DNA of 63,034 bases, the filler included, from Folioceros fuciformis (taxonomy: Eukaryota): NCBI GenBank assembly GCA_049999805.1. It is 13 parts of 13 records of this genome, joined end to end, with 100 filler letters (N's around TTAATTAATTAA, not from the genome) between each part and the next. Parts side by side here need not be neighbours in the genome. Positions count along the whole stretch, not along the records: positions 45,378 to 61,710 come from JBNGIO010004991.1; 12 more parts are not named here. The stretch is one strand, 5' to 3'. Shown here one piece after another: positions 654 through 61,710 of the stretch. The notes under the pieces were generated by a model. It was not told the origin of the DNA. It ran no database searches and saw only the letters and a program-made list of their open reading frames with translations. Numbering within the stretch: position 1 is the first letter of the stretch; the number at the start of each line of letters is the position of its first letter. Both the position numbers and the translations under genes were made by a program.

Positions 654-3600
654 TTAAGGAAGGAGGAGGAATGGGTGTGGACATCAGCACGGGAGGATGT
701 GTTTCAGGATCTCAGGACCACGCTTGTAACTGCCCCAATGCTCAAAGGACCTATGGAGTGATTTCTTGCACACCCAAGAACCACCAAGGGGCCACACTTC
801 CCCTTATTATCGTTGCAGTCTTATGATTCGCTCCCAAGGGAGTGAACTAATGTCAAGGTTACCTACATCTCCCTAATCTCACCCTATCTATCAGCATATA
901 CCAAGTGCTACAACAATAGGTCAAAATTCTCGGTCCTGTCTTCGGCTCTTACCACAACACCAGCCCCAGCCTCAACAATATGAGAACTCCAGCATTGTCT
1001 TCAGCCCTCGTTTCCAACTCCAAGTATCAATCACTTCAGTGCTGAGAGGAGGCTCCAGCCCCAAGTCTGGCCTCCAACTCTCAGCACCTAGTGCTAGCTC
1101 CCTCCGCAGCTAAACGAGAACCTCAACTTCAGCTACCTCCTCACTCCAGCTTCAACACTTCATTCCACCACTTCAGCACTTCACCCCAACATTTCAGTCC
1201 TTCACTTCAGCACTTCACTTCACCCTCCAGCCCCTCACTTCAGCTCAACTCCTCGCTTCAACACTTCCACTTCCAAAATCTGCAACTCAACCCTTCTCTC
1301 CTGCAATTTGGAACACAATAGCCTTCCCTCTTGCAGCCTTCCCTTCAAGGCAGAGGCGAGGCCTAGGGCTGGGTAGCCTCCTTGGCTCACGGCCCTGCAA
1401 CCTCACCTCAGCCAGCATGCAAGGTGGTCAGCCATTGCGGATCCGGCCACACGAATCTTGGCAGTCTTGGGATCCTCCACGTTCCCCTAGTGGCAAGGGA
1501 AATCAAGACCTTGGTTTAGTCTCAACCAGCTCAGCGCCCTAAGCCAAGAGTTCTGCACCCAAGGTCCAGGGAAATCGCACCGTAGACAGCCCCCTCCTCA
1601 ATGGCAAGTCTAGCCTCTTATACTACCTTGGCCCAAACCTCCATCTCTATCTATTAGGGTTAGCCTCAGTCAACCACCTAGCAATCTTTATCTGACCTAA
1701 GCCGCCCCTAATTCTGACCTAAACCTAACTCTGACCTAACCCTAACTTTGACCCAAACCTAGTTTTGACCTAATAGGGGTTGTGTGCCATGGACACCACT
1801 GGGTGCCCTTACCAAAATTGACCAACCTCTCAAGACTACTAAAATGCTCAGTGCCTCTCAACACTCTCCCTCCTCCCTCAAATCATTCCAGCAACCCTTC
1901 AAAGACGTGTCTCGCCTCACCATTAATCTAGCTACTAATCTAACCTAATCTTTTAACCATTTCACCACAGGGTTCACTTAAAGATTCCCAAAAAGAGAAA
2001 TCCTACCATTTTCCAAGGACCTATTCAGCATGTGGAGTCCACAGGACCCGATTGGAGCAAGAAATTCCACGTATATGTCGACGTCTCAGCCTTTGCCATT
2101 GGGGTCATGCTCAGCCAACGAGATGAGAAGAAGAGGGACCACCCGATTTATTATGCAAGGCGACAACTGACCGAGGCAGAACGAAAATACTCAACCACGG
2201 AACGGGAAGCCCTCGAAATGGTGTATTCAGTCCGGAAATTTCGGCACTATCTGCTATCCTACGAATTCGTGTTCCATGTGGATCATTTCGCGCTAAAGCA
2301 TTTGGTGAACAAGGTAGATCTGTCAGGAAGGATAGCCAGGTGGGTTTTGCTATTGCAGGAGTTCACCTTTACAGTGGAGACCCGCCAGGGCCGCAAGCAC
2401 GTCAACGCCGATTACCTCTCATGACTGCAGTCGGAGGAGGTAAGCCAGGATCAGGAGGATGAGTTTCCGGATGAAGCTCTATTCACAGCAGAAATCGAGG
2501 GTGAAGCGGTTGTGCCCAATCGTAAGCGCTAGCAGAAGGGGGGCACAGCAGGAAATGAGAAGGGGAGGGTCAAGTTTGTTCGGCCCACCTATTTGGGAGT
2601 AGCGGAATTCCTGGAATCAGGGGTCATTTCTACCGATGTATCGAGACAGCGGAGGCAAGCTTGGGTGCACTACACTCGACCTTTCACCCGCAGCGGAGGG
2701 GAGCTGTATCGAACAGGGCCGGACGGACGCCCACGTTTATGGATAACAGGAGAAAGGATTGAGCAAGTGCTGAGGGGCCTGCACGACGAGGAGGCAGGTG
2801 GCCATTTCGCAGCGCATATTACTTGCAGGAAGATCCAAGAGGCAGGATACTGGTGGCCCACGATGTACCGAGATACAGCACAATACGTAAAAAATGTGAT
2901 GCCTGCCAGCGGGTGGGGAAGCCTACCCCGATGACGCAATGGCCGTTGGTGCCGATTTTGGCTTTGGCACCCTTCGAGAAGTGGGGAATCGATTTTGTGG
3001 GACCGATCCAGCCAAAGACTCGAGTTCGGCAGAATCAGTACATTTTGGTTGCGACGGATTACTGCACAAGGATGGTGGAAGCGCAACCTCTGCAAGTGGA
3101 TACTGCGCATGTGGTCGCAAAATTTCTGTTCGAGCAAGTGATTGCTCGGTATGGCTGCCCGCTGGAGTTGGTAAATGACCGGGGTACCCACTTTGTCAAT
3201 GAGGTAATCACCCATCTGGTGGACGATTTCAATGTGTAGCACAGGCGAACTACCCCCTACAATCCGAAGGCGAATGGGCTGACAGAGAAAGCGAATGGTC
3301 TTTTGTGTCGAATACTGAACAAGATGACAGTGGAGTATTCTTATGACTGGGATCTCAAGCTCCATTCGGCGCTGTGGGCGTATCGGACTACAGAGAGAGT
3401 CACCACCCAGAAAACTCCTTACTATCTTACTTATGGCCATCATCCGGTGATGCCTATGGAGTTTGAAGTGTTAACCCCGCGTTTTCAAAACAGGGATCGG
3501 ATGACAGTGGAGGAGAGTCAGCTGGAGCGCCTGGTTAGTTTTATTAAACACACTGAAGACATGGAAAAAGCTTTGGAAACAATGCAGGAGATGCAGACTA

Positions 3601-3839
3601 GGAGGAAGGAGTGGCATGACCGTAGGATGAAGCAACAGGAGTGGGTAGTGCCTGGTGATCTAGCTCTGCTATATGACAGCAGGTATATGCACTTTCCAGG
3701 GAAATTACATCTGAGGTGGATGGGACCATACAGGGTTGCTGAGGTTTTTGACAATGGCTCCATTCAGCTGCAACAGATGGACGGACAGCTGCTGCCAACC
3801 AGGGTGAATGGGTGGCGTGTGAAGAAGTATTATGTGTAG
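654..3839 (+). mobile_element. Ty3/gypsy (Athila/Phygy-like, non-chromovirus) pol fragment: RT connection, RNase H, integrase; degenerate and split by a solo LTR
   Basis: LRKEEEWVWTSAREDVFQDLRTTLVTAPMLKGP|DWSKKFHVYVD reads through once 752-2043 and one TSD copy are removed. Also YSTTEREAL, GGHF..T..KI..AGYWWP, PFEKWGIDFVGP and GKLHLRWMGPY...VNGWRVKKYY. No chromodomain. Contains stops and frameshifts. Confidence 0.92.
752..2043 (-). mobile_element. Solo LTR (family A, 1292 bp) with 5-bp TSD GGACC
   Basis: GGACC at 747-751 and 2044-2048. Termini TATGGA...TCCACA. Homologous to the LTR end at 48965 that abuts a tRNA-Asp PBS, which sets minus orientation. TATA-like TATAAG at ~1617-1622 (minus). 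Confidence 0.88.
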
Positions 3840-3861
3840 GTTGGCGAGGGCGCCAACAGAT

Positions 3862-4720
3862 GAGAAGGGGAGTATGTGAATGAAAAAAACTTTCGGAACC
3901 CCCATTTTGAGCGACGGAATGAGCAGGTTGTGATTTTTTTTGTGAAGGGACAGGCGAATCGGCTTAGTAGGTAAATGAGACCAGGGCGTTTATGCCCAAA
4001 GTCCCTCTTGGCCTTTGGGGTTTGGGGTGTACTGAAGACCAGGACAAGGAGGAGGAATGAGCGAGTGCCTCCTTGCCTCTCGGGTCATTGAGAACATTAA
4101 GGACCAGGTCTGTAGGTAGGTGAGTGGGGTATTACCGTGGCCTTTGGTGGTCCAGGGCCCCTTAGGTCTCTATACATGCTACCCCCCTCCCCTCTTTTCT
4201 TTTGAGAAATAAGGAAATAGAAATGATTAGGGAACAGGCTAGTGGTGGACTTAAGCAAAAATAAGGGCTGAGACGACGGGGCGACGGTAGTCGGCAGGGC
4301 AACCGTCGCCGGAGGGACGACTAGTGGTAGCCCGATGGGCGGTAAGGAGAGAAAGCAGGCAGGGCATAAAACCCCTAGAGAAGGGGGAGCTTTGTCTAGC
4401 ATCTGGAAGCGCGGGGAGTGGGAGTAACTTGAAGCGTGAAGCGGCTGAGGAAGGAGAAAGCGCCAGGACGACGGGATAGACGGCGCATGGCGTAAGGGTT
4501 GAGCAGGCACAGGGGAGTGGAAGACCTCCAAGGCGCGAGTGGTGGAGAGAGCTGGGCGAACAGAGGACGAGCCAGAGCGCGACCAGGACAAAAGAGATCC
4601 GAGCCCAAGCGTGAGAGGAGGAGGATAGGCAGGATGAGGACGCGGCCTGAACTGATCCTTGGAGCAGTAGCCTCTGGACAAGAGGGGGGGGCCTCCTGTC
4701 CCCCGAATTGACCTACTCCT
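3862..4720 (+). mobile_element. PPT (3862-3872) and start of the gypsy 3' LTR (TGTGAA at 3875), including the 5' end of the LTR-borne ORF (ATG 4634); cut by a copia insertion
   Basis: GAGAAGGGGAG begins 23 nt after the integrase stop. Homology with the reverse complement of 51106-50410 starts exactly at TGTGAA. GRMRTRPELILG matches GRMRSRPDLIPG. Confidence 0.75.
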
Positions 4721-12588: not shown

Positions 12589-14932
12589 GTAGTACTAGGA
12601 TTCGCTCCCAAGGGAGTGAACTAGTGTCAAGGTTCGCCACAATCTCCCCCTCACTGCCCAAATCTAACCCTATCTATCAGCCGGCTCCTAGACCTAACCA
12701 CACTATAGCAAAAAGATCAGAACCCTGTCTTCAACACCAACCACAGCCCCAGTTGAATGAGGACTCAGCATCATCTTCAGCTCCCACTTCCAGCTACGGG
12801 TATCAGCCGCCTCAGCAATTGAGAGGAGGCCCTAGCCCTGGCCTCGACCTCCACTCTCAGCCCTAAATGCCAGCCACCCCAGCAATTGATTGAGAACTTC
12901 AGCACCTAAGCTCTTCACCCCAGCACAAACAACTCCAAACTCCAGCCCTTCAAGTCTCTACTCCAGCACCTCCAGTCTCTACTCCGGCACTTCCCCAACA
13001 CTTCAAATCTCTGCTCCAGCACTTCAACTCTTCAACCCTTCACCATCACGTCTCACTCTTGGATTTTGGAACACAGTAGCTCCTCACTTGCAGTCCTTGA
13101 GGCAGGGATGTGCAGGCCCAGGCTGGATAGCCTCCTCGGCTCATAGCCCTGCAATCCGTCACGTTGGAAACCCCTTAGGGACGTCAAGGTACCCCAACCA
13201 CCCAACCAGCATGCAAGATAGACCAGCCCCTGCGGATCTGGCCACCCAGATCTCGGCGATTTTGGGAGCCGCCACGTTCCCCTAGTGGCATGGGGAATCA
13301 AGGCCAAGGCACATCTGCACACTGGGTTAAACCTCTAACCCGGCAGCCTGCACACAAGGTCAAGGGCGCTCTTCACCAAAAAAAGCCCCCCCTCAATGAC
13401 AGGCCTGGCCCCTTATACCTCCTTGGCCAAGAACCCCTGTCACTCCCAACTAGGTCAGCACGCCTCCAACAAAACCCTCCACTCGTGAAACCCTAAACCT
13501 AACTCCGACCTATTCCTAACCCTAACCCTGACCTAACCTCACTCTAACCAGAGCATCCTACACCCTTCAGAGCCTCCACCTCTTCACATTCGTTCAGCCT
13601 CCATGCTGCTGATCTGGTGCCCTCAAGGGCAGCCTTGTAAACCTGGCACCTAAAAGTGACATTCCACCATTTGGCTCCATTCCACCATGGGCCAATTGGT
13701 CAGTTCCTCGGCTTTGTCCGCATGCATTCTTCTGGCAGCCTGCGCCTCTGGCCCTTATCCAAGCCACCGTAACCCCCTGGAACTGGGAATGGATCCCGAG
13801 ACTGGCTGCAACCTTTGGAGATCCCCCAGGATGTTTAGCAAGAGCCTGAGGCAAGCCAGGCTACTTTGGGGAGGAATGCGCCACCAGCTGCCCATTGCTC
13901 GCGCTCATGGCTTCAAACCTCCTCAGAAGCACCCGTCCGCTCAACGTCATTCCCGGAGCTTTATGGACACTGTTTTCTCCCTCGTCAAATAGGAGGACTT
14001 CCACAACGGCTACTGCTGGAAAATGGGTGGCATCGAAAAGAAGTCAGACAAGTTCCCTTACAATCTTTCACGAGCTGAGGCCGTAGCTCCGTCGAAGGCC
14101 GTAGAAGGCTGGTGCAGGACAGTCTGGATATAAGACATGCAAAGGACACCCCCAGTCTAGTTATCCTGCTTCTTCAAGATCTTCACCACCGTCGACCCAT
14201 GCCCGGGACTCAACCCCTCTTGTTCCGCGCCGGCCCAGCTTTGACCGCCCGGAATCCGCAACCTTAGAATTCCGCTTTCCATCCAGCCAAATGTTGTTAG
14301 CCTTGATGGCTCTGTGGAAAATCGGGGGGCTTGCCTCGTGGTGCAGGTACGCAATCCCCAGTGTGCTCCCCAACGCAATTCGTAGTCACATTGGAAGATC
14401 CAGCTTTGACACCCCGCCATGCCCGAATCAGTTCAAACTGCTACTCCAGGCCACAACGAGCAGCAGGAGTCTCCGCACTGCTGCCCACCGCCTGCAGCCA
14501 ATCCGGCCAGCACCTGCCATTTGCCCTGCCGGGCCGCCTACCTGATTTCCTCCACGCAGCCGGCCTCCTCCCGCTTGGCGACCCAGCCCTCAACAGGAAC
14601 ACCCTGCCTGATCTGCCCCGGCCTGCCTGACCTGGTCGAATCTATTGCCCCCCTGCCCTGGCTAGGCCACCTGCCCAGCTGGATGGATCCACTTCGATCC
14701 GCTTGCCCGGCTACCTGGCCAGAGGCCCCTAGCTGGCCTTCCATTCGGATCCAACCCGAATAGCCGCCAGCTCCAGCCAATTGCCCCTAGCCGACTTCTG
14801 CCCTCAAGCTCTGGCCAGGCAGCCTGGTTGGATCTGCCCGCTTGTGGTGGCTGCCTGCCTTCCCGGCCCATCCCAGCTGCTCGCGGGCCAGCTAGGCCGC
14901 TGTGCCCAGCCGTGACCAGTCAAGTCGCCTAG
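12589..14932 (-). mobile_element. Family A LTR variant with a long, different U3-side region containing host-gene-like fragments
   Basis: 12589-13550 is collinear with 815-1770 of the solo LTR (TCGCTCCCAAGGGAGTGAAC, TATA at ~13413, CCTAAC repeats). Sequence beyond ~13550 is unrelated to the solo LTR. The far LTR terminus is not visible. Confidence 0.6.
14236..14392 (-). pseudogene. Receptor-like kinase fragment (subdomains VIa-VII, LRR-VIII-1-like), catalytically dead
   Basis: [51 protein letters not shown] matches the RLK pattern RLRIALGSA.GI.YLH.EA.PPIFHRDIKASNILLD....KVADFGLS. HRD is HRA and DFG is DSG. Confidence 0.85.
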
Positions 14933-48122: not shown

Positions 48123-51106
48123 TCCACGTAGGCCTGCAAGGTCTCCTTCCTCCTCCTCAAGGCCTCCAGTTTGGACAGCACGTAGCCCTCTACGTCTATC
48201 CCCCTGAACCTCTCACAAAAGGCCCTCTTTAGCACATCAAAAGTTGCTGGAAATGTGCCGGCCTTGAGGTACTCCCTCCTATACCACTTGGCAAGCCCTC
48301 CACGCAGTACACCATAGAAAAATTGGATGCGCTATGCATCCGCTGATTCCTGGTTAGCAAGGGTTAGCTTCTCAAACTTCTCCACAAATTCATCCGGGTC
48401 CTCATACCCCTTCTTCTCCCCATACAAGGGGTATGGCTGCTTGGTGGACATTGCAACAGCTAGGGTCGCCATGGTGCCTGCACTCACTCCTGCAGTTGCA
48501 AATCCAGCATCTCCGGCCCCAGGAATTTGGCTGATGTTGCTGAATCCCTCAGCTCTTGCACCCCTAAGCTCCTGCACAACCCCAGGTTGAGGATCAAAGG
48601 GCAGACTTGGGTTAGGTTGACCTGAATTAGGCCCCTCTCCCACAGCAGAAAGTTGGGGGTCTTGCTCTAATGTGACTAATTGCCCCCCAGCCTCCTGGTT
48701 TCTTGCCCCTCTCCTCCTCCTTGCTGGTGTATGTCCTGGTTGTGCCCGCCTCAGCTCCCTTCCACTGCTCTTTGCTCACGCTCCAATACTTGTTGTTGCC
48801 TCCTTGCTTGAGCTTGAGCTCCCCCTTCACACCTGGAGTTGAAATCTTTAGCTCCTATGCGAGGCATCCATCAGCCCTCCCACACTCGCTTGTACAATCC
48901 CCTATCCAAGTCAGACCTCTCCAACCCTTGACAACAATGTCACTCCCCGGCAACGACGCCAAAATGTGGAGTGATTCCTTACACCCAAGAACCACCAAGG
49001 GCCACACTTTCCCTTATTATCGTTGCAGTCCTATGAGTCGCTCCCAAGGGAGTGAACTAGTGTCAAGGATTCCTACTATGGCCTATTCTCACGTCCACCT
49101 ATCTGCCGGCTTGACCGCACTCCACCAAAAAGGTCAGTTCCTTATTCTATCTTCAGCTCAACCCACAAACCTCACGCTCCAACACTTCAATCCTTCAGTC
49201 CTTCAATCCTTCAACCCTTCATGATCCCCACTTCAGTCTGTCATGTCTTCACTTAAGTCATTCCCCTTTCACTTCAGCTCACACTCCTGCACTCCGGCAG
49301 CTCAGACTTCACTTCACGTCACCACAATGCTTCCCCGCTTTACTTCAGCTTACCCCTGGAATTTAGGACACAACGGTCTCACTTCTGGCAGTCTTCAAAC
49401 ATGGGTGTGGATACTAGGACTGGATAGCCCCCCTGGCTCATGGTCCTGTCACTTCACCCCCGCCAACCTGCAAAATAGTCAGCCATTACGGATCCGGCCA
49501 CACGGATCTCGGCAGTCTTGGGATCCACCACGTCCCTCTAGTGGCAAGGGGAATCAAGTCCTTGGTTCAGTCTCAAACTGGCTCAGCATCCTAGGCCGAG
49601 AGTCTGCACACAAGGTCAAGGGGAATCTGATCCTTTTCCTCCTGGTGGGAGCCTTCTTTTGTGGGGCCATCCTCTTCCTGGGCTTGGCTGGGGTTTCCTC
49701 CTGCGAGCTATCCCCATTATCAGCTTCCCAACTGCTAGAGGCAGCCCTTACTGGCTCAGCGGGCTTCCACTTCACATCATGAACTAGCTTCCACAGGTGC
49801 AGCGAGGCCAGCCTTTCTAGCTCAATGACCACGTTAGCGTAACTGTACACGTGGATTAGAAACGGGGAAATCATAGAAAGTTCAGGGGTGGGTCGGATTA
49901 GGTTCTGCCTCTCCTCATCCATCCGGGTGTATAAAATCCTTCCCCAGTCGATCTTGGTGCCCTTCACTACTTCATGCACAAACAGGAGCATCTGATCGGA
50001 CAGATAATCCTGTTTGCATACTCGGAAGAAGCTCAGGAACCACCTAGCCAATCCCAACAGCTGGGGACTTGCCATGTCGCGCACCTGCCACCCGTTCGCT
50101 TCCTTTCTCGTGCCTGCCTTGAGCAGTGTTTCCGCCGCTCCCGTTCCGCCACGCCTCTTCAGGGACTCCAGCACCAGCCCCCCTTCCTCCTGTTGGTCAC
50201 GCCCGTAGACCCTCCTGACCAACTCCAAGTTCCATTCCTGGGGTCTGCCTTTGATCCCCTCCTCGCGTACGGGCTCTATTAGCCTCAGGGCGCACTCCCT
50301 GACCAGCTGAGGTGCTGCATGGTTCCACTTCTGGGTCATAAAAGTCAGACCCAGCTCTGCCACCAATTTTCCTGCCCTGACTCTCCAATGCTCCATGTTG
50401 GGCCACAGAAGTAGGTCGATTTGGGGGACAGGAGGTCCCCTCTCCTGTCTAGAGGCTGCTGCTCCAGGGATCAAATCAGGCCGCGACCTCATCCTGCCTG
50501 TCCCCCTCCTCTCGCGTTCGGACTCAAAACTCTTCTGTCCTGGTCGCGCTCTGGCCCTTCCTCTGTTCGCCCAGATCCCTCCACCGCTTGCGCCTTGGAG
50601 GTCTTCCACTCCCCTGCGCCTGCTCGACCCTTACGCCCTGCGCCGTCTGTCCCGTCGTCCTGGCGCTTTCGCCTTCCTTAGCCACTTTATGCTTCAAGTT
50701 ACTCCCGCTCCCCACGCTTCCGGATACTGGACAAAGCTCCCCTTTCTCTAGGGTTTTTATACTCTGCCCTCTTTCTCTTCTTATCGCCCATTCGGCTACC
50801 ACCAGTCGTTCCTCCGGCGACGGTTGCCCTGCCGGCTACCGTCGCCCCGTCGTCTCGGCCCTTACTTTGGCCTACCTTAATGTTCTCAAGGACTCGAGGG
50901 TCAGGGAGGCACTCGCTGCTTCCTCCTTCCTCCTTGTCCCGATCTCCAGTACACCCCAAACCCCGAAGCCCAAGGTGGACTTTGGGTATAAACACCCTGG
51001 TCTTACTCGCTTACTAAGCCGATTCGCCTGTCCCTTCACAAAAAGAATCACAACCTGCTCATTCCGTCGCTCAAAATGGGGATTCCGAAAGTTTTTTTCG
51101 TTCACA
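48123..51106 (-). mobile_element. Athila/Phygy-like gypsy: LTR 51106-48965 (TGTGAA...TCCACA, internally deleted or chimeric), tRNA-Asp PBS (48944-48961), gag fragment
   Basis: Plus-strand TCCCCGGCAACGACGCCA has one mismatch to the plant tRNA-Asp 3' end. Gag reads YPLYGEKKGYEDPDEFVEKFE...LRGGLAKWY...FDVLKRAFCERF. Confidence 0.85.
49554..50492 (-). CDS. LTR-borne extra ORF, N-terminal domain (Athila ORF2 / PF20167 Transposase_32-like by motif pattern); truncated at ~49628
   Basis: Open frame with QLVRECALRL, IKGRPQEWNLELVRRVYG, LARWFLSFF, VKGTKIDWGRILY, MISPFLIHVY. Homologues at 55.5-55.9 kb and 59.3-60.2 kb. Domain assignment is by eye. Confidence 0.7.
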   Translation of the reverse strand: MRSRPDLIPGAAASRQERGPPVPQIDLLLWPNMEHWRVRAGKLVAELGLTFMTQKWNHAAPQLVRECALRLIEPVREEGIKGRPQEWNLELVRRVYGRDQQEEGGLVLESLKRRGGTGAAETLLKAGTRKEANGWQVRDMASPQLLGLARWFLSFFRVCKQDYLSDQMLLFVHEVVKGTKIDWGRILYTRMDEERQNLIRPTPELSMISPFLIHVYSYANVVIELERLASLHLWKLVHDVKWKPAEPVRAASSSWEADNGDSSQEETPAKPRKRMAPQKKAPTRRKRIRFPLTLCADSRPRMLSQFETEPRT

Positions 51107-54100
51107 ACCTTTCTCCCCCAACGATTTGTCTTTCGAAGTAGAGGAGTACTTCTTCTTCCCCCTCGAATTTCTTTTTTTTCCTTCACAACTCTGTTTTCCC
51201 TCCTTGCGCGTCTTCTTCCTTACCTCAGCATTGGACTCCTCATAATTCAATGCCGCCCGTATTGCCCTCTCCAGATCCTTTTCTACTTGCAGACGAACGT
51301 GCCTTCCCATTGCTGACCCCAATCCTCGCGCGAACCATCGGATAGCCATCAACTCTGAATGAGGCCCTGCTCGATCTCGCAGACTATGGAATCTTTCCAC
51401 ATACGCTTGCAGCGTCTCCTTTTACCTTCGCCGCAGCCTCTCTAGCTTGGACAGAACACACCCTTCCACGTCCACCCCTCAAAATCTTTCACATAATGCT
51501 CTTTTGAGCGCGTCGAAGGTGGCTGGCGGTGTTGCTGTCTTGAGGTATTCTCTCTTGTACCATTTGGCAGCGGCCCCCTGTAGGACTCCATAGAACAATT
51601 GTACACGCTGCGCATCGTTCGCCTCCTGGTTTGAGATGGTCAGCTGTTCAAAACGCTCCACAAGATCATCAGGATCTTCATACCCCTTTTTCTCCCCATA
51701 TAGAAGGTATGACTGTTTAGTGGTCACGGCAACTAGAGCGGTGTTCATGACTACTGTTGCGGTGCGAGCTACCAAAGTAGTTGCTATGGCTACCGCACCC
51801 TCACCAGCTTCTATACCCACAAAGTTTGTCTGAGCCAAGACGGGTTTGGGTGGACTAGGTTGAGCCACAATTTCCACCGCGGGTCGTAATTGGGAGCACC
51901 CAACCCCAAATACCTCTTCTTCCTCCTCAACTAGTTCAGGCAGCAGTTGCCTTCCCCAAGTAGCTAGACTCCTTGGCTCCCTCCGCCGTACAGCCGACAC
52001 GTGTTCTCATTGCGTCAGCTGCGTAACTCGCTACAGACGCTCTAGTGTCTGGCGTTGTTGCCTCTCTAACAGTGGTTCCCCTAAGTCAGACTTTGAGTCG
52101 CTGATCCTTTCACGAGGCATCCATCAACCACGGTTACACAAACTTTTCCCCCCAGCAAGTTCTACGCTTCCCCACTCAGCTGTTAGTCACTCCTACCTGC
52201 GTATTCTAACATCTATTCATTCCCCAGCAACGGCGCCAAAATGTGGGGGAAAATATTGCACCCGGGGGTGCTGCGAGGTCCACATAAACCCTCTTTGTCG
52301 TTATAGCACTGGGATCCGATCCCAAGGGAATGATTTGTGATAAATAACGCAGGTTGTCTCACAAAGTCAGCTACTACCCTAGGTCAGGCTCGCACGGTTA
52401 CTACTACCACATACCCGGCCACCTTGCTACCACCTGGCTACTCTGTCGCCCTAACGACTACCACTATTCTCGACTACTTTCGTCGCCCGACCGGCTACCC
52501 TAGTGGGGTCCACACACCCTCTCTCTTCTTCCCCCGGACCCATGCCTCTTTCTCTCTCCACCCCCTCTTCCTACTTATCCCATGACTCACTTTTCCGGCT
52601 TATGCCTCCTAACGATCGAGATCCGTCGTAGACCTCTCTCTTCCCTCTTACTGGCGATCACCCTTTCCTCGCAACACGCACCCCTCCGTCCGCTCACATC
52701 CACTCACTGCCCCTCTCAGAGATCTAAGGCGCTCAGCTCACACCCACGCACACACACGCACACACACACAGGGAGACACGAACCTTCACCTACGTACCCG
52801 ATCCTTAATCAGTCAACACGCTCCCCTCCACTACCGCGTTTGACTCGCATCCTCTGGACCCGACCTCTCGCATCCGCTCGTACGTCCCTGTACTTTAGTC
52901 ACATAGACACCGGTGAACTTCTCTTCACCTCATAACAATTCGTCACGGCACATAAACACATCTAGTTCTCATCACCCTCCTGCTTTATTTACTTGCTAGT
53001 CAGTCACGGTTACACCCCCGCGGCGCTCACTCTCACCACTCCAATTTTTCAGTTCCTTAGCTACACTCTCGACTCACTGCCACTCACACACAGTCAATCC
53101 AATCGTTCAGTTTCACAACTTCTTCCTTCGATCATCACCACAACCATGTTCTGCATCCAACACACAACCCTCGACACACTCTCAATCTTTAATCCACTCA
53201 CGACTCTCGTCTTCTCTCACCAATGCGCCCCGTTTGGGCCTTCTCTTCTCTCCGAAGTTTGAAGAGGTGGTGGGTCACCGAAGGCTAAGGGAAGGGTTAT
53301 CCGCTTCCACTCCGAACTTGCGGATTTGGCCTCCAGCACCTTTTCCACCCCACGCAACCGTCACAGGAATAGCTGGGGAGCTTGTCTCCCACTCAGTGAG
53401 GTCTCCCCTCCCGATTCGTTCCCGGTTTCCGATTACGAAGCATCCACCATCTGCACCCGCACCCTCAGAACACTACGTGCGCTCGCTTGCCTGGACCTCT
53501 TGTCCAGCAACGGCCATCACTAGGCTTCCACATGGTCGGAATGTCTAGTTGGTTTCTTGCTGATTTTCCCGAGGCCTCAAACTGGCCTCTTGTACACGGT
53601 AGTGGCGGTCTTTCCGCCATAAAGTTTGTCAGGAGTCAGTCAGCGCTCTTAAATTCTAAGCGGCTTAGGTCCAAGCAAAAACAATCTAAAAAAAACTAGT
53701 CTAGATTGTAATTACTATCGCCTCCCTCTTTGCCATTGGCGCCTTCCTCCTGGCCGTCGCGCTCCTCCCCCTACTGGTCCGCCTCTAGTCCTCCTGCCCC
53801 GCCGCTGGTCAGGCAGGATCTCCCACAAGACCTCCACCTCACTACTGTTGCTGCTGGCCCTTGCTGGCGGCGGCGCAGGTGGGTCCTGTTGCAGGAAATT
53901 CCTCTCCTCCCTCCGTTGCCGATTACTGAGGATGAGGACAAGCTCCCGTTCAACCCACCGCTGCACCTCCTCCTTCGTCAGTTCCTCCAAGACTGCCTCA
54001 GAATAGTAGTGAGGCAGCCCCCATACCCACCAGCGGTAGTAGTAGATGCCCCTACGGGTCTTCAATTGTAGGCTATAGCCCCGCGTCCCCCCTGTGCCCA

Positions 54101-55907
54101 CGCGTACATACGAAAACAACTTCAGAACTCGGGCTCCCTCCACATAGAGGCCTGGCACATAAGAAGCCTCCTCCTCATACTGCAGCATAACCTGACCCCC
54201 TATCATAAGGGAGGTGCTTACCCCTTCCTCCCTTGGGCTACTTCGGGCCGCCTGACCCTTGCTCTCATGGGGTACCTGAGAGTCCTCCATTCCTCCGGCT
54301 GCTACTACTTCCTCCAGCTCTGTCTGCCTGGTGCGAGTCACCCTCCAGGAGCGCCTGAGCACAGGCGCCCTTGCTCTTGCTGCTTCGGCTACCGGGGTCG
54401 TGACTTCGGCTACCGGGGTCGCACCACCCCTTCCGGTAGCCCCTTCAACTGCCTGGGCAGCACGAGACTACCAATAGCCTCGCCGGCTACCGAATCTGAC
54501 ATGCGACTACCGGTAGCCCCCCCAGCTACCGGTTGTGAAACTAGACTATCGGTAGCCCCTTCGGCTACCGGTTCTGAAATTGGACTACCGGTAGCCCCTC
54601 CGGCTACCAGCGTCGCCGTCCGACCACAGCGCCCGGCCTTGCCCTTCCCTTTTACTAGCTCCCTAGCCTCATTCTGCTCCCAATTGTACCTGTCCACCAG
54701 CTTCTGGGCTTGTTCCATCGCAACCATCTCCTGCTCCTGAGCCTCGGCCAACTCCTGCTGTATTTCCAAATTAGTTTCAAGGGCTACCCTCACCTGAGCT
54801 AGGAGCGACTCCTATTGCTCCATCAGTGCCTGGATCTCTACCTTGGCCTGGCGCGCCTCTCCCTCTGCTTGTGCCTTGTCCTCACTCAGGACCCGCCGCT
54901 CTTCTTTGAGAAGCTGTCGTGCCGTTTCAGACTCTGCCAGCCGTCTCCAGGCTTCGGATTCCTTTCCTCTTGCCTCTGCCTCTCCACTTCGGGCCTTGGC
55001 CTCCTTCTCCGCCTGCCTGCTTAGCTAGGTCAATGCCCTAGCCACCTGGTCCAACACGTCTGCCTGGGCCCGCACCACGGCTGAGGTTAGTCCTGGCAGA
55101 TCCACCTCCTGCGACTCCATAGGGGCTATTCCCCTCTTGCTTATTTGCCTCCCCATGAGCGCTCGTATCTTCTCTAGCTCCTCCGCCTGCAACCTATCCA
55201 CCTAAGGGATCTTCCTAAAAACATCTTCCCATTCTAGAAAGGCTTCCTGCTTCGGATCATGCCCTAATTCCCTCCTTCCCTCAGGAGGGGTCACTTCCAT
55301 CACTGGCTCCTGAGTTGCCTCTAGTTCCCCTTCGTTCAGTTCCTGCTCTACCGGCCCTTGATTTGCTGTTTCTCGGACGGCTTCCTGCTCCGCCTCAGTT
55401 CGTTCCAGGCCTACCTCCTATGACACCAACCCGCTCCCTTTTCTGACCACCTGACTACTGGCCCGTCTCCTCTTGGCGGGAGCTTTTTTTCCTGACCCTA
55501 CCTTTGTCTTCTACCTAGCAGGGGTCTCCTCCTCCGAACAGTCCGCATCGCCTACCTCCCAGCTGCTAGAGTCGGCTCCTGCCGGCCCGGCGGCTACCAC
55601 TTCACATCTCTTATTGGTCTCCAAATGTGTAGTGAGGCGAGGACTTCTAGCTCAGACACGAGATTAGCATAGCAGCAGATATGAATTAGAAAGGGAGAAA
55701 TCATTGAAGGTTGGGGAGAGGACAGGGTTAGATTCTGCCTTTCTTCATCCATCCTGGCGTATAAGATTTTCCCCCAGTCCACCTTGCTCCCTTTTACCAC
55801 CTCGTGCACAAACAGGAGCATTTGGTCGGACAGATAATCCTGCTTACGGACTTGCAGAAAACATAGGAACCATCTGGCCAGACCCATCAGCTGCGGGTTG
55901 GCACACT
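51107..55907 (-). mobile_element. Athila/Phygy-like gypsy: long family B LTR (from >=55907 to 52242) holding the 3' part of the extra ORF (55887-53715, decayed), tRNA-Asp PBS (52221-52238), gag (~52120-51107)
   Basis: TCCCCAGCAACGGCGCCA-AAA-TGTGGGGG. Gag YGEKKGYEDPDDLVERFE...WFARGL. ORF pieces DYLSDQMLLFVHEVVKG, a coiled coil, and YVPGLYVEG...WGLPHYYSEAVLEEL. Confidence 0.85.
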
Positions 55908-56387
55908 AAGGGGTGCCGACTTGGTGCCTGGCAAGAAACTCCCTCTATATTGAATGACCCACATCGTCCCTTCCTCATCCACATGTATGCTGATCAACAC
56001 TTAGAGCAAACGCGACACAGAAAGCAAGAAGACTGGTGCATATCACTAAGCACACCTAACCATGGTCGATGACATAACAGACCATGGGGGGAGCCATGGG
56101 AAGATGTGACCGTTCCCCGGGCTGTGAAATCAACAGCGTGCACGGTGCAATGGAGGCGAGTGTGTGCAGAAGGTGTATGCGTTCCATAATCACCAGCAAA
56201 AGGTACAATGCAAGAGCTTGGCCGCGCCTTGCGCTGCCGCCAACACACTACATGCATTGAAATTTTCATAAATTTGTGTGTGCAGTAAGACCTACGCATC
56301 ACTTTACACTAGCACGTCGTGCTGAAGCAAGGACCTTGGCAACAAAGGGACACTGGGGGAGGTTTCTATGCTAGCCTCATAACACAA

Positions 56388-59300
56388 TGTGGAGGAAAAT
56401 ATTATGCCGAGGGGCACTGCGAGGTCCACACAAACCCTCTATGTTGTTGTAGTCGTGGGATTCGATCCCAAGGGAATGATTTGTGCCAAATAACACAGGT
56501 TTCTTCTAAAATCGTCTCTTGCCTAGGTCAAGTCTTACCTACCCCCAATTCCACTACCTCCAGGTTCCACTACCACTACCCCTTAGGTGGCCTAGCTACC
56601 ACAAACTTAACTCTATGGCTCCAAGCCTCATTCCTCCACTGAGGTAGGGGTCTCTACAACTACTGGCTCCTCTGTGACCGGTAGGGGTCTCCACAACCGG
56701 CAGTAGGTTCCACCATCGTGGTGGGTCCCACATCATTTTGGCTAACACACGTTGTTTATGGTATCATCGTGGGTTTCTACTCGGGGGTTTCTGCCCGATT
56801 CCCCGGAGTAGCTAGTTGGGATTACTTATCACTCCATAGTTCACACTTAGACAGTCCGGTTCCACGAGCATGTACACCTCATGCCCGAAACCACACAACA
56901 CCTTCACACATACTTGATTCCAACCTACAGTCACTCCTTACAGCTCACTCGTATTTTCCGCAACATCCACAATTCCTCAAGCAGTCTTCCAACAGTCTCT
57001 CACACCACATACTTCAACGTCAAACTCCTTCAGCGATTCCTCAATGATTCCGTCACAGCCTCGACACACTCTCGAATACTCAACATTCATAGCACGCTCA
57101 TTCGCGGTCAACAGTTCGGGAAGTAAGGAAAGGAGAGACACCCCTTCCTCCCCGTAGTCAGCGGATTCGCCTCCCTCCCTACAGACACCGCGGTCTCTCA
57201 CCTTCACGTCTTGACACACACACTCACTTGATCTCTTATCTCCTTCTCACTCGCTCATATCTTACTCACTCATTTATACCCTCATCAGCTCCAGGTTGCA
57301 GTCAAAAGCCGGGAAATAAGGGAAGGACATGATCTCCCTCCACTCCGTGATCGGCGGATTCGTCTCCCTCCTTCGACTCCAACACACACTCAGCTCACAC
57401 CTCGTCTCACTCCTTACCTCTGTATTTGAAAAGTGGTTGGGGAGTCAGGGGATAAGAGAAGCGGGCGCGCCCTCCTTCCACTCTGCAGTCGGCAAATTTG
57501 TCCCCCTCACCTCAACCACCAAGCGCAACGCGGTCCTTCTGGAATAGTAGGGAAGTTTGGCTTCCACTTGGTGAGGACCCGCCCACCGATTCGTCCCCAA
57601 AACCACTCGTCGCAGAGCAGAGGAACCTCGCACACCACCACCCAAGAACACCGCACGCGCTCACCTGCCCGGATCTCCTTATCCGGCAGTGGCCATCGCC
57701 AAGCTTCTTGCTACTCAGTGAGGCGCCAACAGGCCTCTTGTACAGGATGGCGGGTCCGTAGCTGCCATTAAGTTTGCTCCGCGGACAGGGGGCACTCTTA
57801 ATTATGAGCGCCATTAGGTCCAAGAAAATCCTCCAGATCCTATAGGATTCTATTCTATGATGCAATTACTATGGCCTATCTTATCGCCGCGCCCGCCTCC
57901 CGTCCGGCCGTCGCGCTGCTCCTCTCGCTCCCCAACCTCGAGCCCTCCTCCCTCGCCGTTGGTAAGGCAGATCCTCCCAGAGGATTTCTACCTTGCCGCT
58001 GCTTGACCTTTCCCGTGGCGGCGTGGGTGGGTCTCGTTGAGGGGGACTCCTTCTCTCCTCCCGTCGCCTGTTGCTGAGGGTCATTACGGGCTCTCACTCA
58101 ACCCACGCTCGTGCCTCCTCCTCCGTCAACTCCTCCAGGACTGCCTCTGAATAGTAGGGAGGCAGTCCCCACACTTGGCAACAGTGGTAGAAGGGCCCCC
58201 TGCAAGTCCTCAACTGCAGGCAATAAGCCCTTGTCCCTCCTAGTTCCACACGCACATGGACAGTCACGTTTAGCACACGGTCCCCATCCACATAAAGCCC
58301 AGGAACATAAGTGGCCTCATCTGGATACTGCAATACAATCTGATCCTCTGTTGTGGATGAGGTGCTTACCCCCTCCTCCCGTGGGCTATCCCAGACTGCC
58401 TGCCTTCTGCTTTCCAGTGGCACTGGAAGATCTTCCATTCCCCCAGCTGCTGCTCTGCCCTGCTCCGTCCTCCTGGTGCGGGTTGCCATTCCAGCTCTAC
58501 GGGTTGCGGGCTCCTTGACGATTGCTGCCTCCTCTACCTTGGTCAGACTCTCCTCTACTGGCATGGTCTCTCTCCGACCTGTAGCCTCTTCGGCTACCTC
58601 CGTCGCAACTCAGCTACTTCACCGAGTCTTGGCTTTTCCCTTCACTCGGCTCTGGGCTTCGTCCCGTTCCCGCTTGTACCTGTCCGCCAACTTTTGCACC
58701 TTCTCTACTGCAACTGCCTCTTGTTCCTGGGCCCTTAGCAACTCCTACTACATTTCTTGGTTGGTCCCATGGGCTTCTCTCACTTGTGCCAGAAGCAATT
58801 CTTGTTGCTCCTTTAACGTCTGCATTTCCTCTCAGGCTTGGCGGGCTTCTTCTTCTACTTGCTCCTTGGCCGCACTCAAGGCCTGCCAAATCTCTTCCAG
58901 TTGCTGCCGACTTGCGTCAGCCTTTGTCAGCTTTTCCTTCACCTCTGCTTCCTTCTGCCCTACATACTTAACCATGTCAGTGCCTTGGCAGCTTGGTCCA
59001 ACATCTCCGCATGTGCCTGCACCATTGCCGCAGTCAGGCCAAGCAAGTCCACCTGCTGTGGCTCGCCCCCAGAAGCCATCCTCCTGTCTAGGGTCTGCCT
59101 CCCTAACAGCGCACGAACTCTGGCCAGATCCTCTGCCTGTAGCCTAGTCACCAAAGGGACACTCCTGAAAATCCCTTCCCATCCTGGAAAGGATTCCTCC
59201 TCCTGCACTTGCCTTAACTTGCCCGCCACCTCAGCCGGGCCCGCTTCGTCTCCTAGCACCTTTTCCTGAGGTGCCTCCAATGCTTTTTCGGCTAGCTCCC

Positions 59301-60258
59301 GAATGACTTCCTACTGCGCTGATTCCCTCGACACTTTGGCGACTCGCCCACCAACTTTCCTCTTCTTGGCAGGGGTCTTCCGCCTTGCTCCTGCCTTCCA
59401 CTTCCCACTGGTCGGGGCTTCCTCCTCTGAGCTTCCCGTGGCTCCCAATTCCCAACTGCTGGTGCCGGCCTCTTCCTTTGGTTCCTCCAGCTTCCACTTT
59501 ATTTCCTTGACTAGCTTCCACATACGCAGCAAGGCAACCACTTCAATCTCAGGTAAGGTGTTAGCGTGACAATACAAGTGAACAAGGAACAGGGAGATCA
59601 TCGACGGTCGGGGAGAGGGGGAGGCCAGGTTCTGCCTCTCCTCATTCAGTCTGTCATAAAGGATTTTTCCCCAATCAACCCGACTGCCCTTGACCACCTC
59701 GTGCAAAAATAAAAGCATTTGGTCAGAGAGGTAGTCTTGCTTCCTGGTCTGTAGGAAGCGTAAGAGCCACCTCGCCAGCCCCATGAGCTAGGCAGTCGCC
59801 ATCTCCCTTGCCAACCAACTGTTGGCTTCTCTCCCGATTCCTTCCTTGAACAATGCCGCCGCTACTGCTGTGGTGCTACGTTTCTTCATCGATTCGAGGA
59901 CCTGTCCCCCTGCCTCCTCTTGGCTGTGCCCATACACCGTCCGCACCAGGTCCACGCTCTAGTCTTGTGGGTTTCCTCGAATTCCCTCCTCCTTCACCGG
60001 GTCTCTCAACCGCTGAGCGCACTCCTGCACCAGGCCAGGAGCTGCGTGATTCTAGTGCTGGGCCATGAACCCGAGGCCCAGCTCTTCCACCAGCCCTCCG
60101 GCTCTGGCCTACCAGTGGTGCATGTTTGGCGAGAAGGCGACCTCGACTCGCGGCACAAGGACCTGCTCCTCGCCCGCTGGCACCCTCTCCACAGTGGACC
60201 TCTCCTTCTTCATCCTTCTCTGTCTTCTCTCCGTCCTGCTTGTCTCCACTGGGTTGGT
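56388..60258 (-). mobile_element. Second family B LTR (no PBS) containing the complete but decayed extra ORF (60213 to ~57881, ~775 codons)
   Basis: TGTGGAGGAAAATATT terminus is homologous to 52242. ORF fragments are collinear with the other copies. Cut at 60259 by a family D LTR. Confidence 0.82.
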
Positions 60259-61710
60259 TGTGGAGGCAAAACCCCGGGCATTAATTGCCAATGGGTTCCA
60301 CCTTTAGTGGCCACACTTATCCCACTGTTGTTGAGACATTGGGTTTCGTTCCCACGAAGGAGCGATGGGGTTCCTTGCTGCTGTTTAGGGTGGAGGGTCG
60401 GACTTGATCAACTCGATGATGGATTTGAGGGCTCCCCTCCAGCTCCGATCAGGCGTAGGACAGGCCTCGCTGTCCAGCGGTCAGCTGCACCTCTGTCGGT
60501 GCCCTCAAACTCACTCTAGTCACTACAACGACTCTAACCTCTTAGATCTACGACTTCCCTTACTCACTTCACTCACTCTCTTACTCCAGCACCAACACCA
60601 GCAACTACCAGCAACCAGCAACGACACCACTACCTTGTACACTTCCCTACTGACTCCTCCTACCCGGCAAGAGTCACTAGACTAACCCCAAACAAAAGGA
60701 AGAAGGGAACACACTCCCCTCTTGGATATCTCCCCCCTACAACCTTACCAAACGCCATGAAACATGGCTGGCCTACAACACTTGTCCAAGCAAGGAACAA
60801 GAGTGGACAGGTCGAGAGAAAGACACATCCTTTACAATCAAGAGCTAGGGGCAAGCCCCTACACCCTGGTCATTACACCTTGTGATCCTACCAGACACTA
60901 TACAACCGGCAACACACTGCCTGCGATCCTACCAGACACTGTACAGCCGGCAACACGCTGCCTGCGATCCTACCAGACACTGTACAGCCGGCAACACGCT
61001 GCCTGCGATCCTACTAGACATTGTACAGCCAGCAACACGCGGCTTGCGATCCTACCAGACGTTGCACAGTCGGCAACACACTGAAGGTCCTAAACCAAGC
61101 AGGGACATACCACAAGAGCTCATGAAGAGAGGACCTCCAAGAGCTCACAAAGAGATAGACTGACTCCCAAAGTGAATGACTCCCTCCTCCTATAGGCTCA
61201 CCTGATCTTATAGGAGTCTCTCTCTCTCTCTGACTTCACCTCTCTCTAACTTGAGAAATATTATTTTAATAGCCTAACCGGCTGTCACCAGCCACTTATT
61301 TAGACTTCTAGCACATCCTGCCAGCAATGAGCTGGCCCTACCACCACAAGGATCTACCACCTCTTAGACTATCCAGAGACTTCGGAGGATGTCTGATCTT
61401 CAAAGGTCTGCGGACGCCGCCTCTTCCTTGCTGGATGGTCGCCCGCTAGGTCTTCCCCTGCAACTATTCACCCTTGGTGGCTGAGCCAGCCTCTAGGGGA
61501 GGAGCATGAGCCATGGGAAAGATAGAAAAGAGGTGGGAAGGAGTGGGATCAACAGCCGGAACCTGGCCTGAAAACGGTAGCTTATTTAGCGGGATCAGCC
61601 TCCAGCCAAAATGGTTCCTCAGCCATGGAAGGCTGACCCTAGGGTGCAGGGGAAGGCCCTGAACTAAGAGGAAAAGAAAGCAGGTGAAACGGAGTTGAAA
61701 TGGAATTTCT
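60259..61710 (-). mobile_element. Family D LTR inserted in the family B LTR
   Basis: Highly similar to 7810-8486. TATA-like TATAAG on the minus strand at ~61207-61212. Confidence 0.72.
60881..61083. repeat. Tandem repeat, 41 bp x 5
   Basis: Unit TGCGATCCTACCAGACACTGTACAGCCGGCAACACGCTGCC, with no spacers. Confidence 0.95.

Follow-up and report, generated by a model that had tools for sequence, protein, structure and literature searches.

The accessory ORF that accompanies a group of decayed retrotransposons in Folioceros fuciformis probably lies inside the LTR itself, in the A/E, B and C lineages. The window that we analyzed is a stretch of 63,034 nucleotides in which 13 contigs are chained by N spacers (linker form 44N-TTAATTAATTAA-44N). 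In copy A, TGTGAA at 51106 and CCACA at 48965 enclose the ORF (50492->49554) within 2142 bp of a single contig. [quoted passage not shown] In the original prediction, the LTR was said to encode a gene and to be about 4.5 kb long. A selected ORF and LTR boundaries around the ORF of A were indeed found, but the length was an extrapolation: A measures 2142 bp, and the 3.66 kb of B and 3.87 kb of C are minimum values, because these two copies break off at 55905 and 60258, respectively.

LTR ends, primer binding sites and gag

The stretch is best explained as a set of decayed Ty3/gypsy copies nested in one another, from a non-chromovirus group whose PBS is of the Athila type (tRNA-Asp/Asn). Copies A, B and C are carried by the contig at 45378-61710, which is gap-free, without N, and looks like ordinary nesting: a copia element lies in the gag of A, A lies in the gag of B, and M2 lies in C. 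Contigs of this fragmented assembly range from 1.2 to 16 kb; as the copies are at least 12% diverged, repeat-collapse chimeras are less likely. The features of the contig are as follows.

48123..48775, minus strand: gag of A, 5' part, cut at ~48123 beside a copia element
48945..48961, minus strand: PBS of A, TGGCGTCGTTGCCGGGG, behind a TTT spacer
48965..51106, minus strand: LTR of A, 2142 bp, TGTGAA at 51106 and CCACA at 48965
49554..50492, minus strand: accessory ORF of A, 312 aa, intact, ATG at 50492
50755..50761, minus strand: TATAAAA of A, a candidate element read from the sequence
51107..52006, minus strand: gag of B, with weak Ty3_capsid / Retrotrans_gag matches
52222..52238, minus strand: PBS of B, TGGCGCCGTTGCTGGGG, behind a TTT spacer
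52242..55905, minus strand: LTR of B, 5'-truncated, at least 3664 bp, ORF remnants 55905->53715
55906..56387, minus strand: filler DNA between the LTR end of C and the truncated LTR of B, from similarity search
56388..60258, minus strand: LTR of C, 5'-truncated, at least 3871 bp, ORF remnants 60276->57881, CCACA at 56388
60259..61083, minus strand: M2, 3' portion of a further related LTR, which ends CCTCCACA at 60259, directly next to C

The filler DNA has no similar sequence elsewhere in the window. M2 has a second copy at 7812-8486 and a third, of which the start is present, at 14933-14979, and the copia element adjoining the gag of A has its own gag at 46024-47214 on the minus strand.

The LTRs of A and B end in CCACA at 48965 and 52242, followed by TTT and then by TGGCGTCGTTGCC or TGGCGCCGTTGCT. 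Gag follows the PBS at 48775->48123 in A and at 52006->51107 in B, and the ORF lies upstream in both; the order ORF, LTR end, tRNA-Asp PBS and gag had been predicted at exactly these two places, and every one of its parts was located. A preprint (10.64898/2026.03.20.713144), in the portion available, describes the core TGGCGCCGTTGCC, behind a short AT-rich spacer, as the Athila PBS for tRNA-Asn/Asp. Allowing up to one mismatch, this core has two matches in the window, where 0.05 would be expected, each with one mismatch and each directly behind CCACA-TTT. Four related copies end in CCACA or CCATA, two of them continuing into a PBS and gag and two into unrelated DNA; no PBS follows the LTR end of C at 56388. 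Together, the LTR start and end give TGTG...CACA inverted ends.

Start of the LTR and its ORF-free relatives

The start of the LTR was witnessed in two copies, E and A, and because the window is chained from 13 contigs, the two sites (3875 and 51106) are on different contigs of the fragmented assembly. The features outside the contig of A, B and C are as follows.

630..751, plus strand: end of the RT connection region of E (…WVWTSAREDVFQDLRTTLVTAPMLKGP), from translation, broken by solo LTR D
752..2043, minus strand: D, solo LTR of a related family, 1292 bp, starting TGTGGACTCC and ending CACTCCATA
2049..3839, plus strand: RNase H, integrase zinc finger and integrase core of E, from Pfam and ORFs
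3859..3872, plus strand: candidate PPT of E, purine-rich, between the integrase stop and the LTR start
3875..4720, plus strand: 3' LTR of E, first 846 bp, starting TGTGAA and ending where a copia LTR cuts in at 4720
12589..13700, minus strand: F, a further D-type LTR, without ORF homolog

When D and one copy of its duplication are removed, the reading frame of E resumes at 2049. Pfam matches to RT_RNaseH (1.6e-32), Integrase_H2C2 (1.8e-10) and rve (9.1e-08) keep their order over 1957-3239, and E follows the Ty3/gypsy pol order RT-RNase H-integrase, with the RT connection motif left of D and the RT core absent from the window. The Pfam search found neither a chromodomain nor a second RNase H in the pol of E, and no family for its last ORF. 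The integrase ends in …GPYRVAEVF…VKKYYV and the stop TAG at 3837-3839.

Homology to A had been predicted to begin exactly at the TG of a TGTGAA placed behind the integrase stop and a PPT, and this was borne out: behind the stop, a purine run at 3859-3872 is followed by TGTGAA at 3875, and from there onward 83 of 86 aligned bases match A (97%), whereas upstream of the TG there are 38 matches in ~75 bases, which is shuffle level (null mean 40.6). The left contexts also differ: E has the integrase stop plus 35 nt, and A has the gag of B, whose Lys/Arg-rich end forms a basic tail directly before the LTR start of A. The sharp break in identity between unlike left contexts supports the view that TGTGAA acts as a repeat terminus. 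The purine tract of E is weak as PPT evidence when taken alone, because such tracts are common: at 6 of the 22 TGTGA sites of the purine-rich strand, 12 or more of the 15 upstream bases are purines. The LTR of E is 88% identical to 51106->50407 of A and holds CATAAAA at ~4367 and a frameshifted ORF start; residues 1-65 of the A ORF show 75% amino acid identity to E 4496-4690.

Solo LTR D is flanked by the 5-bp target-site duplication GGACC (747-751 and 2044-2048) and, as read from its termini, shows that the group truly uses TGTGGA...CCA(C/T)A ends and 5-bp duplications. D matches A over 1576-1363 (83%) and 882-754 (88%), involving the last 660 nt of A, and its TATAAG lies ~45 nt upstream of the block that it has in common with A. 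Neither D nor F has an ORF homolog. The last 24 codons of the A ORF run into the block common to D and F, whose TATA sits where A still codes; the LTR start must accordingly be placed within the ORF or 5' of it. Nothing 3' of the ORF in A, B or C corresponds to the first 200 nt of D. At 14164-14385, upstream of F, is a fragment of a kinase gene.

The LTR hallmarks are thus spread over the copies: D shows the duplication and ends, A and B have the PBS, and E has the PPT-like tract. No single ORF-bearing element in the window shows all of them together. Nowhere in the window do two LTRs of one element occur together, no solo LTR flanked by a target-site duplication contains the ORF, and no such duplication was seen for A, B or C.

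Coding content of the accessory ORF

The three diverged copies of the ORF differ at the three codon positions by 0.28, 0.24 and 0.51 (873 codon pairs). Pooled pN is 0.25 and pS 0.67 in frame, compared with 0.34/0.36 and 0.36/0.32 in the shifted frames; in-frame pN/pS ranges from 0.19 to 0.50 and is ~1 in shifted frames of the same alignments. The N-terminal domain keeps 62-74% amino acid identity, vs. 47% for gag. These values show a real coding gene that was under purifying selection while the lineages diverged, and the selection across three copies that had been proposed is reflected in both pN and pS and in the third-position excess. The strand on which the gene lies is 60% purine, both strands have long ORFs, in several frames, and B and C contain many stops, so one could suppose that a strand rich in purines and poor in T is open in these frames by chance, without coding for anything. 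We regard this as highly improbable: chance frames account neither for the pN/pS contrast between frames nor for the third-position differences, the N-terminal domain is better kept than gag, and distant liverwort homologs have the same domain order. The codon-position and pN/pS results effectively refute it.

In B and C the gene takes a longer form, combining a helical domain at the N-terminus and a conserved one at the C-terminus with a basic NLS-like patch and a coiled coil. Read through, it would give ~775 aa, and it ends ~1.5 kb before the LTR end. A protein of that length had been predicted, but no copy is open that long; B and C are each broken into 7 stop-free pieces, over three frames in B and two in C, and only A is open (312 aa). 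The ORF of A keeps a basic patch and the helical domain at the N-terminus (DYLSDQMLLFVHEVVKG…DWG.ILY…MISPFLIH); its C-terminal half is missing, and with it the coiled coil and the C-terminal domain that B and C have. From its layout, A is a deletion derivative whose ORF appears to have been cut short and its tail fused to the R-U5 block, and A is therefore a poor witness for the working form of the gene.

The sole relatives of the ORF found with phmmer were nine weak ones of the same build, all liverwort proteins. Comparison with PF20167 (Transposase_32), which the original prediction had named for a check, gave a likeness only: one of the 13 alignment members matched, at 16 bits vs. a cut-off of 45 (E 0.009-0.012), with 147 of the profile's 177 positions aligned. 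The profile search did not detect PF10536 (plant mobile domain, PMD) in the ORF, and no ORF piece matched Athila ORF-1 (PF03078) or an env-like protein. Among the relatives, one liverwort homolog is named PMD-containing in UniRef, and an Atlas lead points to a cluster in which 18% of members have PMD. Like Ogre ORF1, the gene probably encodes a nuclear accessory factor of the plant-mobile-domain / Transposase_32 type; that this factor helps the element or blunts host silencing is a guess.

Placement of the gene and comparison with known systems

Because the candidate PPT directly follows the integrase, the whole gene would fall in U3: plus-strand priming from this PPT would place it there, every new insertion would hold the gene twice, and a solo LTR would retain one copy. 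The template for translation might be the 3' part of the element RNA, a spliced or subgenomic message, or a transcript from the gene's own promoter. Within the LTR, U3 seems a somewhat better candidate than R or the leader, because a TATA (D, F) or a conserved TATA-like motif (B, C) lies just 3' of the place where the ORF ends. The stops are at 53715-53717 in B and 57881-57883 in C, and ~65-80 nt 3' of them is the conserved, weak TATA-like AATT(T/A)AAGAG, with no purine tract plus TG between. The stops, the spacing and the absence of a PPT agree with what had been predicted, but the motif is not a canonical TATA box, and a better TATAAAT is found in C ~590 nt further on. In A, TATAAAA lies upstream of the ORF, which speaks against U3 placement; it lies 345 nt into the LTR, and the 263 nt that separate it from the ORF ATG contain no other ATG. 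An unlikely extension is that the LTR is a self-contained cassette with its own TATA box, ATG-free leader, gene for a plant-mobile-domain-like nuclear protein and terminator. If so, each insertion would bring two expressible gene copies and each solo LTR would be a still-working gene, so that the retrotransposon would seed the genome with a possible silencing modulator and offer a ready path to domesticated host PMD-type genes.

The LTR placement has to be weighed against an ordinary Athila-like layout, in which an internal sense ORF lies between integrase and a downstream PPT, the LTRs are ~0.9-1.3 kb long, and the order ORF, LTR, PBS and gag in A and B comes from tandem LTR-internal arrays, rearranged or deleted copies, or contig mis-joins. 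We consider this layout possible but the less probable of the two. It is the known architecture of the lineage with this PBS; E alone fits it, with integrase followed by an ORF start; D is a related, ORF-free solo LTR of 1292 bp bounded by a target-site duplication; the assembly is in fragments of 1.2-16 kb; and a deletion in A is evident. In addition, B and C each have one candidate PPT-like tract plus TGTGA 3' of the ORF, at 53117 and 57399, both counted among those 6 of 22 sites, with a TATA-like or TATAAAT motif 112-122 nt on, and these would give LTRs of 875 and 1011 bp. Yet these sites are not conserved between B and C. The ORF stop in B is followed by ~370 nt of non-coding sequence conserved with C, ~1 kb that is unconserved and a conserved 150-nt end, and the 370 nt, ~70% conserved, contain no purine tract plus TG. 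The Athila-like layout also needs a breakpoint in A exactly at the TG where identity with E rises from chance to 97%, and needs both PBS-bearing copies to be tandem or chimeric, whereas divergence of at least 12% makes exact-repeat mis-joins less likely. The unmatched first 200 nt of D likewise argue against it. Were it to hold, the gene would simply add an Athila-like extra ORF from a non-seed plant to those known, which is of modest interest.

To our knowledge, an accessory gene inside the LTR is known from some retroviruses and undescribed for plant elements. Extra ORFs of plant LTR retrotransposons are placed in the internal region in the accessible parts of two reports (PMC7264820, PMC6317226). 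If the gene does lie in the LTR, a selected gene of ~2.3 kb would double its dosage per element, outlast LTR-LTR recombination by being kept in solo LTRs, and be missed both by LTR finders at default length limits and by annotation that treats LTRs as non-coding. It would also provide a testable route by which plant-mobile-domain-type transposon proteins spread and turn into host genes.

The elements resemble Athila in the PBS core TGGCGCCGTTGCC behind a short AT-rich spacer, the lack of a chromodomain, the single RNase H and a sense ORF 3' of pol. Athila relatives normally hold a sense ORF between pol and the PPT, according to the section available of PMC7264820. Here the extra ORF comes after the candidate PPT and LTR start, and in Athila before them; the ORF here is without a PF03078 or env-like match, and the RT core is missing from the window. 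With Ogre/Tat elements they share an extra sense ORF 5' of gag on the DNA and a weak likeness to plant-transposon protein families. Ogre ORF1 sits between the PBS and gag, in the internal region, whereas here the PBS is between the ORF and gag, PF10536 is undetected and PF20167 stays at 16 bits against a cut-off of 45. In the part of PMC6317226 that was available, 57% of the Ogre elements are reported to have PMD, and 23% of the Retand elements Transposase_28. The archaeal-type RNase H (aRH) of the Tat lineage is absent here, there being one RNase H and ~110 aa to the integrase zinc finger; since the available portion of PMC13468544 reports liverwort 'Tat Z2' elements without aRH, its absence is compatible with a basal Tat element.

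The liverwort proteins (Riccia sorocarpa KAL3698783.1, KAL3691606.1, KAL3679291.1 and KAL3698609.1; Marchantia polymorpha OAE26941.1 and OAE21223.1) share the N-terminal domain (L..LGL.FL.W.W…RG.P..WT…NGY…DP…K.DWG…PFL.H.Y), with an acidic stretch and a coiled coil behind it, but their identity to the ORF is just 21-29% (E 1e-8 to 6e-4). Retroviral genes in or overlapping U3 are MMTV sag, HIV/SIV nef and foamy virus bel/bet; they lie downstream of the PPT, hence are copied into both LTRs, and are expressed from 3' viral RNA or an LTR-internal promoter. The gene described here, likewise 3' of a candidate PPT, differs from these animal viral genes in encoding an unrelated protein and in belonging to an element without env in a plant host; if the LTR placement is correct, it would be a plant parallel of retroviral sag and nef.

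Layout of the two contigs

The 63-kb window is made up of 13 contigs of 1.2-16 kb, and each of the 12 spacers consists of 44 N, TTAATTAATTAA and 44 N. Its DNA is that of a land plant, with pieces of a GT47 exostosin gene, numerous copia elements and the gypsy group studied here. Two contigs carry the finding, contig 1 (1-5150) and contig 12 (45378-61710, without N), and the order of features on contig 12 was derived from self-comparison, ORF lists and tblastn, for which ORF pieces of the window itself served as queries.

Features of the spacers, contig 12 and contig 1

5151-5250, 8487-8586, 10381-10480 and nine more: spacers; adjoining blocks may not adjoin in the genome
Contig 12, minus strand throughout:
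60259: end of M2, the 3' part of a related LTR, reading CCTCCACA (self-comparison)
60258 to 56388: LTR copy C; ORF begins near its start and has its stop at 57881-57883; non-coding for a further 1.5 kb up to CCACA; no PBS behind it
About 480 bp between C and B: filler, unrelated DNA
55905 to 52242: LTR copy B; starts mid-ORF, stop at 53715-53717, CCACA 1.47 kb further on
52006 to 51107: gag of B, after TTT and the PBS behind the B LTR end
51106 to 48965: LTR copy A, from TGTGAA to CCACA
48775 to 48123: gag of A, after TTT and the PBS; cut beside a copia element
47214 to 46024: copia gag adjoining the cut A gag
Contig 1, plus strand throughout:
pol of element E: RT tail, RNase H, integrase zinc finger and core (Pfam); stop at 3837-3839
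3859-3872: purine-rich run of E
3875: LTR start of E, TGTGAA; first of 846 bp with 88% identity to A (51106 to 50407); a copia LTR cuts E at 4720

On this sequence, contig 12 looks like simple nesting of elements, and with copies at least 12% apart, chimeras from collapsed repeats are unlikely; both points favor an ORF inside the LTR. The M2 LTR holds tandem repeats of about 41 bp at 60881-61083 (self-matches 88-91%).

Elsewhere in the window, a GT47 exostosin-type glycosyltransferase host gene lies at 37394-39200 (plus) in three ORF pieces, presumably exons (Pfam PF03016, E 4.6e-13 to 9.8e-06). A kinase fragment at 14164-14385 (minus; Pkinase, E 9.4e-06, under the cut-off) directly upstream of F, a related ORF-less LTR, may represent a pseudogene or captured sequence. 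One copia family has two copies (10862-12488 and 40201-41827) that are 97.5% identical from gag to protease and much younger than the gypsy copies; LTR pieces of this family lie at 4721-5150, 10481-10685 and 44752-45042. ARAGORN found no tRNA genes in the window.

Boundaries of the LTR

The end of the LTR is, by alignment, a solid boundary: the last 110-150 nt or so are common to four related copies, all of which stop at CCACA or CCATA. Behind the LTR ends of A and B, TTT is followed by TGGCGTCGTTGCC and TGGCGCCGTTGCT, respectively, in which the GGGG after the PBS 13-mer continues tRNA-Asp. The 13-mer itself, TGGCGCCGTTGCC, was matched with at most one mismatch only twice in the window, at the A and B sites, against 0.05 matches expected. 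The ATHILAfinder preprint (10.64898/2026.03.20.713144) gives this 13-mer as the Athila tRNA-Asn/Asp PBS and places a short AT-rich spacer between it and the LTR. The original observation that the ORF lies upstream of an LTR end, a tRNA-Asp PBS and gag at both 52242 and 48965 held for B and A, that is, for both of the two PBS-bearing LTRs. A and B share this order in spite of saturation at their silent sites, so the order ORF, LTR end, PBS and gag is an old trait of the family.

The start of the LTR comes from a single comparison of two copies, E and A, which is clean. From the T of TGTGAA onward, 83 of 86 positions are identical, whereas the roughly 75 bases before it gave 38 matches, no better than shuffles (null mean 40.6). 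The identity breaks exactly where the LTR had been proposed to start, at TGTGAA directly behind the integrase and the candidate PPT and ahead of the ORF. To the left of this point E has the integrase stop and the purine tract, and A has the Lys/Arg-rich end of the B gag, which are the contexts expected for a 3' LTR and for a 5' LTR in target DNA, respectively. Together with the LTR end ...TCCACA, TGTGAA forms TGTG/CACA inverted termini.

We also considered whether the 51106 junction came from retrotransposed spliced RNA and rejected this, as the shared sequence is not immediately preceded by AG and the tract upstream of it is purine-rich, not pyrimidine-rich. The motif TGTGAGCTGA, common to A, B and C downstream of the ORF, was rejected as a boundary as well; its surroundings cannot be aligned, and it is therefore a repeated word.

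The ORF as an accessory gene

Judged by its pattern of substitution, the ORF is a genuine accessory gene. When A, B and C were aligned by codon, pN was 0.14-0.32 and pS 0.58-0.86. Pooled pN/pS was 0.25/0.67 in frame, against 0.34/0.36 and 0.36/0.32 in frames shifted by one and two bases (ratio about 1), and differences at codon positions 1, 2 and 3 were 0.28, 0.24 and 0.51 (873 codon pairs). The proposed selection on the ORF was thus confirmed, with pN well under pS in the true frame only. Amino acid identity was 62-74% in the N-terminal domain vs. 47% in gag. The protein of about 775 aa was not confirmed as an open frame: the long form is intact in no copy, B and C are each in seven pieces, and the sole open frame is that of A (312 aa).

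With phmmer, a search of all 1.8 billion representatives returned nine matches (E 1e-8 to 6e-4, 21-29% identity). Six of the nine come from the liverworts Riccia and Marchantia, all of them hypothetical proteins, one of these six being plant-mobile-domain-containing according to UniRef. The matches have in common a helical domain at the N-terminus, an acidic stretch and a coiled coil. The only Pfam match of the ORF, to PF20167 (Transposase_32), scores 16 bits, below the cut-off of 45, and aligns 147 of 177 profile positions. Pfam searches with the C-terminal and coiled-coil pieces, and with the nine homologs, gave no match. Look-alikes in the Atlas were streptophyte hypothetical proteins and a cluster with PMD in 18% of its members. 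The AlphaFold model (pLDDT 55 overall, 70-86 in the core) predicts an all-helical core with confidence, and Foldseek of this model against the PDB gave no match at E <= 0.001. A word-index protein search found no match for the A ORF among proteins of near lengths, nor for the B C-terminal domain among longer ones; metagenome scans with the A/B/C alignment and with P0010 gave pattern matches and no confirmed relative.

Position of the ORF and comparison with known elements

We lean toward the reading that the ORF lies inside the LTR; this location of the gene is probable, not proven. Copy A has the LTR start on one side of the ORF and the LTR end on the other, all within a single contig free of gaps. 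Downstream of the stop, about 370 nt are kept between B (53345-53715) and C (57510-57881, both minus strand) at about 70% identity, above the silent-site level, with sharp motifs CTTGGACCTAA, TGTACAAGAGGCC and GGACGAATCGG. We found no purine tract plus TG in this conserved stretch, which is likely a promoter, R or packaging signal judging from its sequence.

A rather doubtful alternative is an ordinary Athila-like layout, in which the ORF is internal and the copies are tandem, rearranged or mis-joined. In its favor, the window holds no paired-LTR element and no ORF-bearing solo LTR, no target-site duplication was seen for A, B or C, and the LTR start is known from two copies only. A purine tract ahead of TGTGA is also common (at least 12 of 15 purines at 6 of 22 sites), and one such site lies downstream of the ORF in B, at 53117, and another in C, at 57399, each with a TATA-like sequence or TATAAAT 112-122 nt beyond it; LTRs starting there would be of normal size, 875 and 1011 bp. 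However, neither site is conserved in the other copy, and the start of D (first 200 nt) has no counterpart downstream of the ORFs, with no score above shuffles.

D (752-2043, minus), a solo LTR of 1292 bp in the pol of E, served as a control. It is flanked by GGACC at 747-751 and 2044-2048, and removing D with one GGACC copy restores the E frame (...APMLKGP joined to DWSKKF...). D starts TGTGGACTCC and ends CACTCCATA; these termini and the duplication indicate that the group truly uses TGTG(G/A)A...CCA(C/T)A ends and 5-bp duplications. D has no ORF homolog and, on its sequence, counts against a simple reading of the ORF as part of the LTR. The final 660 nt of D are 83-88% like A (49627 to 48965). 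The A ORF tail extends 73 nt into the block shared with D and F, so the sequence it overlaps is LTR in both. About 45 nt upstream of this block D and F have TATAAG, and the homologous A bases are still coding. Compared with B and C, A is therefore a deletion derivative, which retains the N-terminal half of the gene, without the coiled coil, C-terminal domain and TATA region. In the U3 of D and F, just upstream of the TATA box, are degenerate telomere-like TTAGGG/TTTAGGG-type repeats (1640-1800 and 13450-13560, minus).

Placement of the ORF in U3 is plausible. Just 3' of the ORF end are TATA in D and F and a conserved AATT(T/A)AAGAG in B and C, which fits such a placement. Against it, (T/C)ATAAAA lies 345 nt from the LTR start in A and E; in A the distance from this motif to the first ATG downstream is 263 nt. 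On that reading an RNA started in the LTR would have the ORF as its first cistron, or the ORF would form a cassette under a promoter of its own.

Four public sequencing runs, none of them listed as RNA, were searched as Logan contigs (pieces listed, 222-2037 nt). Among the pieces listed, none bridged 51106, 48965 or the span from the ORF to the LTR end. Further C-type ORF copies are present in the organism's DNA reads (2037-nt contig). The junction 52241/60259 occurs in Logan contigs, with only 20-21 letters on one side, and suggests an M-type LTR end beside the PBS in other copies. Summed contig depth was higher for the A LTR than for the gags; contig depth is unfit for ranking parts, and we drew no evidence from it, nor from run X4 (RNA only by guess), which covers 48978-49627 and C-type ORF pieces and nothing elsewhere. 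Run X3 on 48100-60300 had 787 G>A differences vs. 173-336 for other transitions; a bisulfite-type library would look alike.

The RT is missing from the window; by its PBS, its single RNase H and its lack of a chromodomain, the group would belong among the non-chromoviruses on the Athila side. An alternative is a basal Tat, for example of the 'Z2' type of liverworts (PMC13468544). Ogre, Retand and Athila elements are known to carry extra ORFs with plant-transposon domains (PMC6317226), and a review (PMC7264820) places them in the internal region. No plant retrotransposon with a gene inside the LTR was found in full-text literature, which covered few subscription journals and came without supplements such as the REXdb per-lineage tables. 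The nearest functional parallels are retroviral, namely MMTV sag and nef.
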